A stretch of 34,830 nt of DNA, from positions 1 through 34,830 of IMG/VR virus record IMGVR_UViG_3300023184_000322. The stretch is one strand, 5' to 3'. Positions 3,810 to 33,211 of the stretch are shown here, piece after piece. The notes under the pieces were generated by a model that saw only the letters and a program-made list of their open reading frames with translations, made no database searches and was not told the origin of the DNA. Both the position numbers and the translations under genes were made by a program. Every line of letters begins with the position of its first letter. Within the stretch, counting starts at the first letter, position 1. Source of the stretch: a virus. Taxonomy: Duplodnaviria > Caudoviricetes.

Positions 3810-4379
3810 TTACAGCTCGATCTTGAGAAGAGCAACGTTGTTAACGGCTGTTCCGAGCCATGTTCCAACTTTAACTGCTCCACCTGCTGGTAAAGTAGCT
3901 GAAGAATTTAGATCGCCAGCTGTTGCACCGACCCAAGCAACATGTCCTGCTGTAGCGTTTGTGCCGCTATAAAGAACAAGTCCTTTTGTGAGTACTGGTA
4001 CTGCTTGTCCACTGATTACTACATTCATTTCAGCAGCTTTACGTGGATTGAAAACTAGTTTTTCGCCGTTTTCATCAAGTTCGCGAACATCTAGGAGGGT
4101 TAAACCTAAAACAGAGCTACCAGAAGTAGCTAAACTTATTTTTGGTGTTACTCCGTATCTTTCGGAAACTGTATTGTCATAGGAAGCGCCTACGCTGCCT
4201 AGCATTGTGTTTGGGGTAGAGTTCAAAGCTGTTCCGGGATTAAATCCGGGAGCTTGAACTTTTACTACTGCACCTTTGGTGAGAACTACTGAAGTAGTTT
4301 CAGCATTTCCACTAAAAGCGAATAGATTTACAACGTCATTCTCGTTGTATTGTCTTAATGGTCTTAAATTATGTGCCAT
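3810..4379 (-). CDS. Capsid decoration/cement protein
   Basis: 189 aa Gly/Ala/Val-rich, between protease and capsid gene; SD AAGGAG. Confidence 0.6.
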   Translation of the reverse strand: MAHNLRPLRQYNENDVVNLFAFSGNAETTSVVLTKGAVVKVQAPGFNPGTALNSTPNTMLGSVGASYDNTVSERYGVTPKISLATSGSSVLGLTLLDVRELDENGEKLVFNPRKAAEMNVVISGQAVPVLTKGLVLYSGTNATAGHVAWVGATAGDLNSSATLPAGGAVKVGTWLGTAVNNVALLKIEL

Positions 4380-22514: not shown

Positions 22515-22934
22515 ATGAAACAAAACCTCAAAATCAGTTACCAAACATTCGGCGAAAACAATGCTTACCTTCTCGAAGGAAGCATCAAACAAATCAATCA
22601 CTTCTTCAATAGTATCTATAATTGGGAAGGAACTAACGGCAAGTTGCACGATATGGGCAACGGCAAGGCGTTTTACTTCTACGCTCATCCAGATGATGTG
22701 AAGAAGGCACTTGTTAAGGTTGCTCTTCACGCTTTCGTGAACAAAATCAACGCCAAGGGTCGTAAAGGTGGACTACTTGACCTTGCGACAGACAAGGCAC
22801 AGAGCATCATTGACGATATGGTGCAGACCTGTTTCCTATGGGGTGCGAGTAGCTCCGAGGGGTATAGCCTTGGGACTATCAGTGCAGAGAAGCCAAGTGA
22901 TTACTGCGGTGCAGTTAGCAACGGAAGGGACTAA
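22515..22934 (+). CDS. Hypothetical protein (paralog of 29266-29652)
   Basis: Likely start MKQNL at 22515; YNWEGTNGKL, KGGL, YSLGTISAEK. Confidence 0.75.
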   Translation: MKQNLKISYQTFGENNAYLLEGSIKQINHFFNSIYNWEGTNGKLHDMGNGKAFYFYAHPDDVKKALVKVALHAFVNKINAKGRKGGLLDLATDKAQSIIDDMVQTCFLWGASSSEGYSLGTISAEKPSDYCGAVSNGRD

Positions 22935-25796: not shown

Positions 25797-25872
25797 CTAA
25801 GTTGTTGGTTATCAACGACTTACGGCGGGACAGGGGTGGGCTTGCGTAAATCCTTGATTATCAAAGACTTAC
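25797..25872 (-). repeat. 76-bp element, copy 3 (at the transcription convergence point)
   Basis: CTAAGTTGTTGGTTATCAACGACTTAC + GGCGGGACAGGGGTGGGCTTGC + GTAAATCCTTGATTATCAAAGACTTAC (plus-strand text). Confidence 0.9.
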
Positions 25873-25887
25873 GAAAGCTGATAAAAA

Positions 25888-26037
25888 TTACATACTAGCT
25901 CGCCAACCTTCAAACACTTCATCAATCTCTTTCTGCTTTTGCACAAAACTTTTATCGGTATCGAGAGGAGGATTTTCGTTATCGCTCCAAGGATAAAAAG
26001 ATTCTAAGTTTTCTTTTAATAGTTTTTCTATGTTCAT
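25888..26037 (-). CDS. Small protein, 49 aa
   Basis: MNIEKLLKENLESFYPWSD...WRASM*; preceded by a 23-aa TM peptide ORF at 26034-26105. Confidence 0.55.
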   Translation of the reverse strand: MNIEKLLKENLESFYPWSDNENPPLDTDKSFVQKQKEIDEVFEGWRASM

Positions 26038-26791: not shown

Positions 26792-26867
26792 AAATCTCAT
26801 TGAATATCAATGACTTACAAAAGAGCAGGGGTTGCCTTGCGTAAATGCTTAATAATCAAGCACTTAC
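26792..26867 (-). repeat. 76-bp element, copy 4
   Basis: AAATCTCATTGAATATCAATGACTTAC + AAAAGAGCAGGGGTTGCCTTGC + GTAAATGCTTAATAATCAAGCACTTAC; overlaps the ardC stop. Confidence 0.9.
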
Positions 26868-27689
26868 AGACTCTTCAATAAATTCTTCGCTTTCTTTTTT
26901 ACCAACAAAAGCGTCAAATCTTTTTTGGGCTTTGCTCGAAGCCGAAATAATAAAATTGACATCTTTTTTCAAAACTTCTAACCAGCTCGAAAGATAGCTC
27001 GCAGAATTGTTAAAACATTTTTCAGAATCAATTCCGCAGAAGTTAAGACAGAGATTCGCAAAAATCTCTGCGGTCAATTCTTCTTTGCTATAATTCTGAG
27101 AACCAAAACCATTTTTAACATTATCACCAGTGCTTTTATGCATAGCGTGGCCAATCTCGTGAAACGCTGTCGAGTAATACTCCTCAACGCTATGGAAGTT
27201 TTCTTTTGGAGGCAAATCAATCTTATGTTCTTCTGGATAGTAGCAGGCACGACTGCCACCATACTTAATCTGAATGATGCACTTGTTGATTAACTTTTCT
27301 GCTTCTTCTACTGGTGAAAAATCCAGCTTCTGTACTTCGGGCTGTTTCCACTTCATGCCCTCAATATCACTCAAACCAAAAACTTTATAGAATCTCATAA
27401 GAGGAAAGCCACCTGACTCATCATCTTTCTTTTTTAATAGTTTGTAATAAACTACCATGTGAGACTTTGCACCCTTTTTGATTCTTCCGCCAAGTTCCTT
27501 AATCTGATTGAATGTAAAAAAGAAATCATCAGAGGCAACCATGCGAAGTAAGAATTGATTGATGCCCCTATAACCCTTTTTGGAAACTCCGTTGCAGAGG
27601 TCAAAAACTTTCCAAGGCTTCTGCCAAGGGCACACACCTTTGTTGAGGGCTTCGATGAACTTTTCAGTGATAATTTCGTTTACTTTCAT
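26856..27689 (-). CDS. ardC: ArdC-family antirestriction ssDNA-binding protein with zincin domain
   Basis: PWQKPW, YRGIN, TFNQ...G.RIKKG, FHEIGH, YSKEELTAE, SASYLSSW. Confidence 0.88.
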   Translation of the reverse strand: MKVNEIITEKFIEALNKGVCPWQKPWKVFDLCNGVSKKGYRGINQFLLRMVASDDFFFTFNQIKELGGRIKKGAKSHMVVYYKLLKKKDDESGGFPLMRFYKVFGLSDIEGMKWKQPEVQKLDFSPVEEAEKLINKCIIQIKYGGSRACYYPEEHKIDLPPKENFHSVEEYYSTAFHEIGHAMHKSTGDNVKNGFGSQNYSKEELTAEIFANLCLNFCGIDSEKCFNNSASYLSSWLEVLKKDVNFIISASSKAQKRFDAFVGKKESEEFIEESVSA

Positions 27690-27728: not shown

Positions 27729-27804
27729 AAATTTCATTGACCATCAACGACTTACAGAAGAAGGGGCGGTTGCCGTTGTAAATACTTAACTATCAATGAG
27801 ATAA
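27729..27804 (-). repeat. 76-bp element, copy 5
   Basis: AAATTTCATTGACCATCAACGACTTAC + AGAAGAAGGGGCGGTTGCCGTT + GTAAATACTTAACTATCAATGAGATAA. Confidence 0.88.
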
Positions 27805-27842
27805 AAATATTGATTTAAAACCAATATGGTGTAATATAAGTT

Positions 27843-28022
27843 ATGAGGGTATCTGGTTTACTTGAATCTTCTGCGTTGTATAGAAAGTTTATGGAAGAAC
27901 GCGAAGAAATATTAAAACTCAAATGGATTGAAAGTGAAAAAGCTGGTCAAGATATTGGTTTTGAAAAAGCTCTGTTGAGTTGGGTTTTCAATCACAGAGA
28001 AAAATGGCGTAATAAAAATTAG
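27843..28022 (+). CDS. DUF4032-like small protein, 59 aa
   Basis: SALYRKFMEEREEILKLKWIESEKAGQDIGFEKALLSW; GTGTAAT 7 nt upstream; not in ORF track. Confidence 0.75.
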   Translation: MRVSGLLESSALYRKFMEEREEILKLKWIESEKAGQDIGFEKALLSWVFNHREKWRNKN

Positions 28023-28234
28023 TTCTTCGACCCTTTACGCTCTAGATTCGTAAAGGAAATACCCTGCTCTTTTAATTTGCCTCAGACTCTGGGCGTTGGC
28101 AGGTTCATCCTCTTATGGAGTTAGTCAGACTCGCTCGAGAAGTATTGGCATTCCGTTATATATAACCAATATCTCTATTGGAAACTTTCCAGAACTGCAA
28201 CCTTGCGGTCAATCTTCTCTGATATCGAAGAACT
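28021..28234 (-). ncRNA. Candidate ~214-nt structured non-coding RNA
   Basis: Promoter TTGCAC-16-TAAGAT (28268-28241) predicts +1 at 28234; perfect 10-bp 5'/3' closing stem; several internal hairpins; no ATG at +1. Confidence 0.7.
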
Positions 28235-28269
28235 AAAACTATCTTAACATAACTTTGTTTAAGTGCAAT

Positions 28270-28301
28270 AAAAAAGGCGAGGTTTTTACGCCTCGCCCTT
28301 T
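28270..28301 (-). terminator. Rho-independent terminator
   Basis: GGCGAGG/CCTCGCC stem followed by a T-run on the minus strand. Confidence 0.8.
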
Positions 28302-28320
28302 CTATAATGTCTTTCTGTTT

Positions 28321-28587
28321 TTAGACTGGCGAAAGACCACCAGCGATTCTATCATAGCGGAATTGCTTCACGCCAGAATCCATACGACCAGAAAAGCAGA
28401 AGCTAGTGAATAGCTTATTCCCTGCCTTGCTGATGGTATGAGAAGAAGGCTTGCCGATGATGTAAGTATAGACATCATTCTTGCCGTAGGGTTTGTATTC
28501 GATTAAATACCTTTGCCCAAAAAGGAAAAGGACGAAGTGTTTCAGATATGAGGTTAAGTATATAACTGCGTTTTTGATTTTGTTCAT
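28321..28587 (-). CDS. WYL-like small protein
   Basis: Likely start MNKIK at 28587 (TTGCAA-16-TATATT-5-ATG); IEY...C...KQFRYDRI. Confidence 0.55.
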   Translation of the reverse strand: MNKIKNAVIYLTSYLKHFVLFLFGQRYLIEYKPYGKNDVYTYIIGKPSSHTISKAGNKLFTSFCFSGRMDSGVKQFRYDRIAGGLSPV

Positions 28588-28625
28588 AGTTAAATATACC
28601 ACGCTTATGTTTTTTTGCAACAATT

Positions 28626-28701
28626 AAATCTCGTTGACCATCAACGACTTACGCGCAGAAGGGGCGCGCCTTTTGTAAGTATCTTATAGTAAGTAACTTA
28701 T
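28626..28701 (-). repeat. 76-bp element, copy 6
   Basis: AAATCTCGTTGACCATCAACGACTTAC + GCGCAGAAGGGGCGCGCCTTTT + GTAAGTATCTTATAGTAAGTAACTTAT. Confidence 0.85.
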
Positions 28702-29265: not shown

Positions 29266-29652
29266 TTAGCTATCGTGGTCTAACTTTTCAGCAGAGACTT
29301 GACCAATAGAATAAAAGTCTTGAACTTGTGCAGTCTTAACGAAATGTTCCGAAGGAATATTATTAATTGTGTTCATCACACGATTCATAACAACTGCTTT
29401 CAGTCCACCTTTTGCTCCACGAAACTTTTTTCCAAGTTTATCGCTCAAACTACTCATAACATACTTAAACATCACACGCTCCAACTTCTCAAGAGTAATC
29501 CAAAAGTATGCGAAAGATTCACTCATCCATTGTAGCTCTCCGTTTGTTCCGCCCCAATTATAGACTCGATTGTGGAACTGCTCAATCTCATCTTTGTTAC
29601 CTTTGATTCCGATAACCCAATGTGCTCCGAGGTTTTGTTTCATTAGTTTCAT
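29266..29652 (-). CDS. Hypothetical protein (paralog of 22515-22934)
   Basis: YNWGGTNGEL, KGGL, YSIGQVSAEK; TTGACA-16-TAAACT-7-ATG. Confidence 0.75.
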   Translation of the reverse strand: MKLMKQNLGAHWVIGIKGNKDEIEQFHNRVYNWGGTNGELQWMSESFAYFWITLEKLERVMFKYVMSSLSDKLGKKFRGAKGGLKAVVMNRVMNTINNIPSEHFVKTAQVQDFYSIGQVSAEKLDHDS

Positions 29653-30113: not shown

Positions 30114-30114
30114 A

Positions 30115-30205
30115 TACTAGGGGCAGGATTCGAACCTGCATTTTGCCCAAATCTAGAGCGACCACATTATAAGTGTGGGGTCTTAACCAGTTAGACGACC
30201 CTAGC
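30115..30205 (-). tRNA. tRNA with TAT anticodon (Ile) and long variable arm
   Basis: Acceptor GCTAGGG/CCCTAGT+A, CCACA-CTTATAA-TGTGG, 22-nt variable region, GCAGG-TTCGAAT-CCTGC; 91 nt. Confidence 0.85.
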
Positions 30206-30244
30206 AATCAACACAGAGCCGTAGCTCAATGTCAGCCTCCGAAG

Positions 30245-31568: not shown

Positions 31569-31644
31569 GTAAGTGTTTAACTATCATAGGTTTACAGCGC
31601 GAAGGGGGTGGGCGCGCGTAAGTACTTGATAGTCAACAACTTAT
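31569..31644 (-). repeat. 76-bp element, copy 7
   Basis: GTAAGTGTTTAACTATCATAGGTTTAC + AGCGCGAAGGGGGTGGGCGCGC + GTAAGTACTTGATAGTCAACAACTTAT. Confidence 0.88.
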
Positions 31645-31654
31645 GCATGTCAAT

Positions 31655-31695
31655 AAAAAAGCAAAAAGAAGCGGAGGGTTTTGCCCTCCGCCTCT
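31655..31695 (-). terminator. Rho-independent terminator
   Basis: GCGGAGGG/CCCTCCGC stem then TTCTTTTT on the minus strand. Confidence 0.8.
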
Positions 31696-32682: not shown

Positions 32683-32758
32683 GTAAGTGCTTATCCATCA
32701 ACGACTTGCGCGCGGGGGTCGGGGCCCCAACGTAAACCCCTAATAATCAATTACTTAC
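32683..32758 (-). repeat. 76-bp element, copy 8
   Basis: GTAAGTGCTTATCCATCAACGACTTGC + GCGCGGGGGTCGGGGCCCCAAC + GTAAACCCCTAATAATCAATTACTTAC. Confidence 0.88.
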
Positions 32759-33211
32759 TTAAATCAAACTAAATTTAAAATCACTCTTTCTATACTCTCT
32801 TACTTTCCTTTTAGCATATAAACTAGCATCTACTTCACATAATTTAGCTCTTGTACCCATGTTATATTTTCTTATCTTTTTAATACCATGAAAGAACTTA
32901 TTCTTTTTATATTGATATAAGTGTCTTAATTCATGAGCAATTAATTCAATTAAACCTTCTTCCCAGCTATATGTTTCTACATTAAGATAACCTTTTCTTC
33001 CACCAGTATTATAAGGTCTAAGATACTTGCCATACTTGGGAACTCCAATATGTACCCTCATGCTACCCCAAGCCCTGCCATGCCAATTTAATTTAGTATT
33101 ACCAAAATCTATTTTACGGATGTCTTTAAGGAATACCCCATCTGGCATACACCATTTAATAATTTCTTTTAGTTTATCTGAACAATAAGAGGTGCTATTG
33201 ATTAACTTCAT
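32759..33211 (-). CDS. Zincin-like (HExxH) metallopeptidase
   Basis: LIAHELRHLYQ...CEVDA; TTGACA-16-TATTAT-6-ATG. Confidence 0.75.
   Translation of the reverse strand: MKLINSTSYCSDKLKEIIKWCMPDGVFLKDIRKIDFGNTKLNWHGRAWGSMRVHIGVPKYGKYLRPYNTGGRKGYLNVETYSWEEGLIELIAHELRHLYQYKKNKFFHGIKKIRKYNMGTRAKLCEVDASLYAKRKVREYRKSDFKFSLI

Follow-up and report, generated by a model that had tools for sequence, protein, structure and literature searches.

The window analyzed here is a whole virus record of 34,830 bases that encodes a terminase, a capsid protein, PhoH, a sigma factor, ArdC and four tRNAs. On its minus strand, at positions 28021 to 28234, the sequence evidence supports a promoter-driven, structured, non-coding RNA gene without an Rfam family. 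This reading is supported because promoter geometry, ends and helices are kept in 69 relatives and because contigs from RNA libraries cover the interval. An earlier note on this DNA had proposed a novel structured non-coding RNA at this place; the gene is real, and it is promoter-driven, non-coding and without an Rfam family, but part of the fold first proposed for it is wrong and the internal structure is corrected below. As to function, a putative role as a stable self-dimerizing RNA that, acting in trans, would decoy an RNA-binding or RNA-cutting protein of the host, is given somewhat less than an even chance. The features on which the analysis relies are listed below in window coordinates.

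27843..28022 (+): convergent neighbor, a 59-aa DUF4032 protein whose stop codon overlaps the last two bases of the RNA; not a fixed partner (downstream in 46/85 contexts)
28011..28020 (-): tract rich in U past P1, a likely signal for the 3' end (at least 5 T within 12 nt past P1 in 67/69 members)
28021..28234 (-): RNA gene, long form, 214 nt (folding, relatives, RNA-library contigs)
28032..28056 (-): P4 hairpin, with an 8-bp stem and a 9-nt loop; the loop hexamer UCUAGA (28046-28041) is self-complementary and predicted to be the site of dimerization (conservation, covariation)
28063..28103 (-): P3 arm, with CCUGC/GCAGG, a purine-rich internal loop, a (C)GCC/GGC stem and a 10-nt loop (28091-28082) with AGUC at 28088-28085 (conservation)
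28104..28106 (-): J2/3 strand GAA, invariant (69/69, partly by construction, as the search patterns required GAA)
28118..28132 (-): P2b hairpin, loop UGACU, with invariant GACU at 28126-28123 (GACU in 69/69; covariation of P2b among short members)
28137..28219 (-): 83-nt arm (nt 16-98) inserted in the long form, absent from the 57 short members
28224..28234 (-): 5' strand of P1, which pairs with 28021-28031 and closes the molecule (conservation, pair probabilities)
28241..28268 (-): promoter of host sigma-70 type, -35 TTGCAC at 28268-28263, 16-nt spacer, -10 TAAGAT at 28246-28241 (geometry kept in relatives)
28270..28297 (-): intrinsic terminator of the upstream 88-aa gene, a 7-bp GC hairpin and T run that insulates the RNA gene (sequence, compensatory variants in relatives)
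28321..28587 (-): upstream neighbor, a conserved 88-aa protein, not a fixed partner (ORF intact in 42/42 aligned copies)

Promoter, ends and non-coding status

The promoter described in the earlier note, TTGCAC-16-TAAGAT-6 on the minus strand, was found in place just past the terminator (hairpin 28297-28276, T run 28275-28270). Its predicted +1 is the A at 28234, 6 nt past the -10 element, and the claimed coincidence of this start with the closing helix was confirmed for both the start base and P1 (10-11 bp). The exact 6-16-6-6 geometry is present in 62 of the 68 members with flanking sequence, compared with a background of 2.1%; in five of the remaining members the promoter is shifted by about one base, and L161 is without it. 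The note had further called the promoter early, a timing that is read from the promoter type only. The same 16-nt-spacer geometry precedes ATG at 8/14 such minus-strand sites in the window. These eight promoters, located between 26776 and 34492 (-) and each 6 nt before its ATG, imply that the corresponding mRNAs may be leaderless.

No open reading frame crosses 28021-28234 in any of the six frames. With the Rfam 15 covariance models, whose families include tmRNA, 6S, SRP, RNase P, Y RNA, GOLLD, ROOL, OLE, riboswitches and ribozymes, only the four tRNAs were found in the window at the gathering threshold, and the interval itself gave no match even at E≤10, and the earlier note likewise could not match the RNA to tmRNA, 6S, SRP, RNase P or group I introns. 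The same models returned only tRNAs on 20 related loci, and only two chance matches (E 4.5-4.9) on one short member. Folding of the 214-nt interval yields a z-score of -3.42, with 0/200 shuffles as good; since 6 of 81 tiled 214-nt segments of the same contig reach -3.4 or lower (12 shuffles each), such values are not rare there and the case for the RNA rests on its relatives. The upstream region folds better still (z=-7.1) yet is a true protein gene.

Collection of relatives

We identified at least 69 distinct relatives, comprising 57 short-form members (about 128-152 nt) and 12 long-form members (214 nt, as in the window). The earlier proposal of a ~214-nt RNA as the unit thus holds for the form in the window, but not for the conserved unit, which is a core of ~128 nt to which an 83-nt arm is added. 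Members came from several sources: 80 of 111 loci around DUF4032 relatives were kept, 16 of which hold the element by covariance model; pattern scans of viral loci gave members at 38/58 and 39/42 loci; and a metagenome pattern scan returned at least 118 loci (36 of 64 parts). The 69-member set leaves out six truncated loci and L418, the 3' part of which breaks off at a contig end. One copy is present in each of three carrier records. A weak model match in L058 was rejected as a member, as it lies within a protein gene.

A scan of 185,579 prokaryote genomes with the core pattern produced 15 stretches, none of them a member by HMM or covariance model, and a diverged cellular homolog may exist beyond the reach of the pattern. 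Two loose patterns for distant members with a changed P3 loop returned at least 120 loci each (17 and 59 of 64 parts), with only known members and noise among the matches listed. When 301 nt were compared by blastn with 50,697 isolated phage records, three 27-nt chance matches were obtained, all outside the RNA. The family is undescribed in the literature searched, a coverage that excludes most subscription journals, and its motifs and contig identifiers have no match in four non-alignment data files of the Fremin 2023 viral structured-RNA candidates (PMC10690425). The members are close to one another, with a mean column identity of 86% in the short form and 94% in the long form. They also recombine, so that changes scored on several branches of the poorly resolved tree may represent one allele moving.

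Secondary structure and covariation

The comparison of members supports, at the level of sequence, a predicted core that forms a four-way junction, in the order P1, P2, GAA strand, P3, AU-rich strand and P4. P2 consists of P2a, a bulge and P2b with the loop UGACU, and P3 of P3a, the purine-rich internal loop, a 4-bp stem and the 10-nt loop. In L113 and L161 the P1 sequence is different and longer. The short-form alignment contains 48 members, leaving out nine short members (length variants or truncation); 97.7% of its cells are paired, and two-sided change is seen in 12/37 pairs, a total that includes four kiss pairs and three hexamer self-pairs, versus 1-5 in slid controls. Our home-made, tree-aware covariation test, applied to 55 short and 12 long members, detected a P2a pair (E=0.003), the P4 closing block (E≤0.003) and a pair of the long-form hairpin (E<0.004). 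It also flagged non-pairing column pairs inside the P4 block, which we read as two loop-closure alleles moving together. Covariation supports the helices P2a, P2b, P3b, P4 and the long-form hairpin; P1 and P3a are kept as well, but two-sided changes in them are few or absent.

The long form inserts its 83 nt at the P2 bulge, and L156 has an extra hairpin inserted there on the opposite strand side, a pattern that a constant core with optional peripheral parts would be expected to show. The arm comprises a helix GAGAAG-AUUG/CAAU-A-CUUCUC, two GNRA hairpins, a helix GC-A-GUUCU/GGAAU-GC and a 10-nt AU palindrome; its hairpin at nt 54-59/64-69, closed by a GNRA loop, shows two-sided change in 3/6 pairs. 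The energy model assigns zero probability to nt 12-14/126-128 (P2a) and to the inner helix 50-52/78-80, and 0.25 to P2b; these three are the weakest parts of the long-form model and rest on short-form homology or invariance. The sole variant of the AU palindrome (28156-28165, minus strand), an A to G change in 3/12 members, keeps self-pairing through G-U, and this element may represent either a small hairpin or a further site of dimerization.

Several elements of the fold first proposed were recovered, namely the GACC-GCAA-GGUU GNRA hairpin, CCUGC/GCAGG, GCC/GGC and the 8-bp CCUUUACG/CGUAAAGG stem, which together with P1 have pair probabilities of 0.72-1.0. The proposed helix GAGA-UAUUGG/CCAAUA-CU-UCUC does not stand: relatives break it (73% of cells paired, with 6/10 pairs departing only by mismatches), and it is excluded by the arm hairpin with its three two-sided pairs. 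UGGAA/UUCCA and UCAGA/UCUGA also fail, with no two-sided change, a probability of at most 0.02 and incompatibility with covarying helices. The inner CAG/CUG pairing is likewise not supported: the energy model favors it (0.95-0.99), but 7/69 members break its A-U pair. Across the 12 long members, two-sided change occurs in 3/60 pairs of the revised structure and in 0/48 pairs of the one first proposed. The first reading also missed two loop features that bear on mechanism, which are described in the next two sections.

A self-complementary hexamer in the P4 loop

The P4 loop holds a strictly self-complementary hexamer in 68/69 members, and the last keeps self-pairing with a G-U pair. Five strict versions were observed (UCUAGA in 53 members, UCAUGA in 7, GUCGAC in 5, UCCGGA in 2 and GUGCAC in 1), the remaining member having UCUAGG. 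Three different double substitutions each keep strict self-complementarity, a property that only 9/135 random double changes would retain, and the adjacent central bases of the hexamer reach E=0.05 in the tree-aware test on the long set. Since adjacent bases cannot pair within one chain, these changes argue for intermolecular pairing, an argument also used for the OLE and GOLLD bridges (PMC12286853). In 54/69 members the loop has 9 nt with the hexamer at positions 3-8; its symmetry axis is therefore offset from that of the stem, and copying across a DNA hairpin would not be expected to yield the palindrome. Six L148-type members carry the hexamer within a differently built P4. The duplex predicted for the UCUAGA loop is modest, at -6.8 kcal/mol. 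On this basis, we predict that the hexamer probably forms a symmetric kissing homodimer.

This arrangement resembles the HIV-1 dimerization initiation site, described as an apical loop in which purines flank a palindrome of six bases (PMC7357161), and one member of our set has the hexamer GUGCAC. The resemblance is one of motif only: here it concerns a free phage RNA with mostly AU-richer hexamers, and in short forms a U usually precedes the hexamer directly.

A second loop pair, and the ribozyme and base-pairing alternatives

The P2b loop contains GACU and the P3 loop its complement, AGUC. Both occur in 69/69 members, whereas the bases beside GACU vary. The next pair outward is U-U in 61 members, U-A in 5, U-C in 2 and A-U in 1. 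All four kiss pairs are invariant, so that two-sided change is zero, and AGUC was partly imposed by one search pattern; when patterns freed part or all of it, the one new loop recovered was AGUCC. Within the P3 loop, the energy model prefers CAG/CUG, which 62/69 members are able to form. Because the P2b and P3 arms are adjacent and of similar length, a contact within one molecule is plausible on the structural model. Overall, we predict a GACU/AGUC kissing pair, within one molecule or between molecules, with slightly more confidence than doubt. If it were intermolecular, the RNA would possess two kinds of sticky site, and rings or cages could form.

The conservation of the P3 loop could also be explained by a base-pairing regulatory RNA that uses this near-invariant 10-nt loop as a seed for a host RNA, since 9/10 of its positions show no variation among unrelated phages, a constraint that a fixed host target would impose. 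We find this improbable: long single-stranded stretches are almost absent from the molecule, the conservation of the loop is accounted for by its complement GACU in the same RNA, the variable loop position is U, A or C, and the comparison with 16S rRNA was negative. A likeness to 16S rRNA near position 340 was rejected as not significant (16 tests, best p=0.13).

Small ribozymes were considered as well. The hammerhead ribozyme has the core motif CUGANGA, which is found in 0/69 members. The RNA resembles the I/V kissing loops of the VS ribozyme in its UGACU loop and in a candidate partner loop with GUC, which tops a short stem with an AA-bearing internal loop below it (PMC4138328, PMC5573960). 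In the published descriptions, VS loop V (U696-G-A-C-U700) makes three base pairs with the substrate loop and cleavage occurs between G620 and A621 (PMC4138328), while the ribozyme crystallizes as a dimer (PMC5573960). A new small VS-like ribozyme can be imagined from these likenesses, in which the UGACU loop would capture the GUC stem-loop and the internal loop one short stem below would be cut, in cis or across the dimer; the AA ahead of the 4-bp stem whose loop holds GUC is likewise invariant. Unlike the VS ribozyme, however, the RNA lacks a counterpart of the catalytic domain (helices II-VI), has a different junction topology and no conserved equivalent of G638. The corresponding position, directly 3' of the P3 short stem, is G in only 16/69 members, so that the resemblance is a likeness of motif and not membership. 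In addition, no Rfam ribozyme matches, one member has AGACU, which breaks the U-turn consensus, and an RNA with its own promoter and U tract needs no self-release. Contigs from runs X1, X3, X5 and X11 run across the internal loop, with which partial cleavage would still be compatible. We therefore consider such a ribozyme about as doubtful as the base-pairing RNA.

Genomic neighborhood

Neither neighbor of the RNA gene in the window is a constant companion, and both long and short forms occur in the DUF4032 slot as well as in a dense tRNA array. The upstream 88-aa protein has no match in Pfam or PHROG. At the stop codon of its gene (28300-28345, minus strand) there is a hairpin with a UCUUUC loop that can pair with a downstream GAAAGA (UCUCUC/GAGAGA in many relatives), which likely forms a pseudoknot spanning the stop codon; many relatives have an optional, variable hairpin after it and before the terminator.

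The distance of ~0.9 kb to the tRNA cluster given in the earlier note is accurate, tRNA-Arg starting 0.87 kb away. A tRNA lies within the fetched flank in 44/85 distinct contexts; in 7 it follows the RNA directly (8-10 nt), and in 14 it directly precedes it (at most 70 nt). This association, together with the fact that GOLLD and ROOL lie near tRNA islands and that GOLLD is reported to have pulled down ribosomes (PMC12286853), would fit an RNA that helps phage tRNA supply or translation by binding to ribosomes, to tRNAs or to a processing enzyme, and that stays with the tRNA island for this reason. On the other hand, 41/85 contexts are without a tRNA, an absence that is partly a limit of the data given flanks of 200-1500 nt, and the neighboring tRNA species differ. 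A CCA near the 3' end is present in 0/69 members, and two 16S rRNAs showed no significant likeness to the RNA in either orientation. A helper role is thus possible though unlikely. With the same lack of CCA, and with ARAGORN silent at the interval, a tRNA-like RNA or tmRNA was rejected.

Five viral contigs (L014, L016, L017, L018 and L019) have, at about 4175-4345 (-), a different structured RNA of ~170 nt with the same kind of promoter in the same slot beside DUF4032. This replacement RNA is multi-branched, includes a GNRA hairpin, shows two pairs with two-sided change among four sequences, has no Rfam match and was found in only these five contigs. The replacement, the convergent gene that adjoins in 46/85 contexts and the fact that the hexamers are also DNA palindromes would be consistent with a role in cis or at the DNA level (terminator, insulator of convergent genes or protein site), or with an abundant but neutral RNA. 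We judge this very unlikely, as the promoter points into the RNA in 62/68 members, the helices covary as RNA, with G-U pairs, and the unit of promoter, RNA and U tract moves between gene contexts; moreover, five different palindromes would not all be tolerated by one DNA-binding protein.

Spread across unrelated phages and the host

The closest terminase relative of the window, at 86% identity, belongs to a complete 172-kb genome, while the best terminase identity among isolated phages is only about 25%. Carriers of the RNA include phages unrelated to the window. G008 (66 kb, 49% GC, 93% complete) has no match to the window terminase or capsid protein and 0 ORFs in common, and in G003 the window terminase matches at only 25% over 147 aa and the capsid protein is unmatched; G007 and G009 are fragments, in which a missing terminase or capsid gene proves nothing. 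In G008, the RNA at about 115-255 (L113) has a much longer, different P1 and is without the standard promoter spacing, which suggests that it may be released from a longer transcript.

This distribution bears on a packaging role. The phi29 prohead RNA is, like the RNA described here, a small phage RNA with two complementary loops, and it oligomerizes when two different loops form four base pairs with each other (PMC7357161), a contact that GACU and AGUC could also make; in G008 the RNA gene also adjoins the first ORFs of the record. However, the terminases and capsid proteins of the carriers are unrelated, the promoter belongs to the host type despite a sigma factor gene in the phage itself, close relatives hold another RNA in the slot, and a separate symmetric dimer loop is present here. 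A prohead-RNA-like part of the DNA packaging motor is consequently the most improbable of the roles we weighed.

The RNA behaves as an exchangeable accessory cassette of promoter, RNA and U tract, which fits a host-directed role. Given that unrelated phages carry the same core and that no phage gene travels with the RNA, the target would belong to the host, although spread over phages of one host group would equally fit a ribozyme or a base-pairing RNA. The DUF4032 neighbor resembles clusters in which the few bacterial members with a classification belong mostly to Verrucomicrobiota, a resemblance that we treat as a lead for the possible host and not as a result.

Possible expression in lake metatranscriptomes

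Fourteen RNA runs, from 14 studies, contain 0.11-0.24 of the words from a 1-kb stretch. Contigs, which show neither strand, ends nor level, were examined from six of these RNA runs and from one run of unknown kind. In X1, X2, X3, X5, X8 and X11, the interval has contigs from RNA libraries over it. Among these contigs are a 214-nt one at 28005-28218 in X3 and one at 28039-28227 that ends in adapter in X11, and contigs of both X1 and X3 stop at 28218. Near-identical contigs extend over 28099-28219 in X2, with a word depth in the thousands versus at most 342 in bins away from the RNA. No X2 contig covers 28021-28098 and two end at 28099; we attach no meaning to this gap, as filtering removes records and contigs of four other runs cross 28099. 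Contigs that continue beyond a predicted end are found in X1 (27848-28218) and X8 (27980-28261). Taken together, these data hint consistently at a discrete, abundant RNA. In run X15, a contig bridges the interval in the manner seen in the five phages with the replacement RNA.

Proposed mechanism and comparison with known RNAs

The decoy reading can be set out as a series of steps of decreasing certainty. Conservation shows a sigma-70-type promoter whose start is the first base of P1, and a U tract past the final base; covariation supports the helices P2a, P2b, P3b and P4 and the long-form hairpin. Next, the P4 hexamer would probably give a symmetric kissing dimer, and GACU of P2b would pair with AGUC of P3 within or between molecules, a step only marginally favored. 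Finally, the target would be a host component, a tentative step somewhat below even that we infer from distribution only. The presence of the RNA in phages unrelated to that of the window speaks for a host target over a part of the virion. In a bolder version, to which we assign a low probability, a compact bivalent RNA would self-assemble without protein into rings or small cages, pass from one lake phage to another, unrelated one as a cassette of promoter and RNA, and neutralize a host defense or RNA-processing protein; if true, it would be the smallest natural RNA nanoassembly known and an RNA-only counter-defense factor.

GOLLD, ROOL and OLE are, like this RNA, phage or bacterial non-coding RNAs without an assigned function and with variable peripheral domains (PMC12286853). 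OLE and GOLLD are reported to have symmetric intermolecular kissing loops with covarying adjacent bases, comparable to the five strict palindromes and one G-U version among the 69 members, and GOLLD and ROOL are often near tRNA islands (PMC12286853). In contrast to them, the present RNA has no Rfam match and measures 128-214 nt, whereas many GOLLD RNAs exceed 800 nt (PMC12286853); its palindrome is a hexamer in a 9-nt loop, and its oligomer is only predicted. RNAC and RNAD of phage T4, small RNAs of a phage tRNA region without an assigned role, offer a possible parallel, a tRNA being present in the flank of our RNA in 44/85 contexts. Those RNAs are classed as late in T4, the portions of the sources used here mention no dimer loop (PMC3014915, PMC9697503), and blastn against isolated phage records matched our RNA neither to them nor to any other phage. 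Phage tRNA-island RNAs, some of them oligomeric, are therefore an already known kind. What is new is this RNA family, its small size and its two sticky sites, as well as the predicted second kiss, the spread over unrelated phages and the different RNA that replaces it in the same slot.

The purpose of abundant structured RNAs beside phage tRNAs has been an open question since T4 RNAC and RNAD. The solved oligomers GOLLD, ROOL and OLE are large, and the RNA described here is small; since nature provides a series of alleles at each sticky site as well as a form that lacks one arm, dimer formation, loop specificity and partner binding become approachable with short transcripts.

Three further candidates were rejected. 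A word likeness to the SAM-I riboswitch has no Rfam support, and among the three carrier records (one complete) neither a Ro60/TROVE gene (0/3), as for a Y RNA, nor a reverse transcriptase gene (0/3), as for a retron or DRT non-coding RNA, is present.

Other observations in the window

Dispersed double-palindrome repeats lie upstream of early-type promoters at 25805-25889, 26800-26884, 27737-27821, 28610-28700, 31577-31661 and 32691-32775. The tRNA at 30114-30206 (-), with anticodon TAT and called Ile, has 93 nt and an unusually long variable arm, and similar long tRNAs are found in relatives. Small proteins encoded at 22515-22934 (+) and 29266-29652 (-) resemble paralogs and have in common, by eye, the motif FxNxxYNWxGTNGxL.
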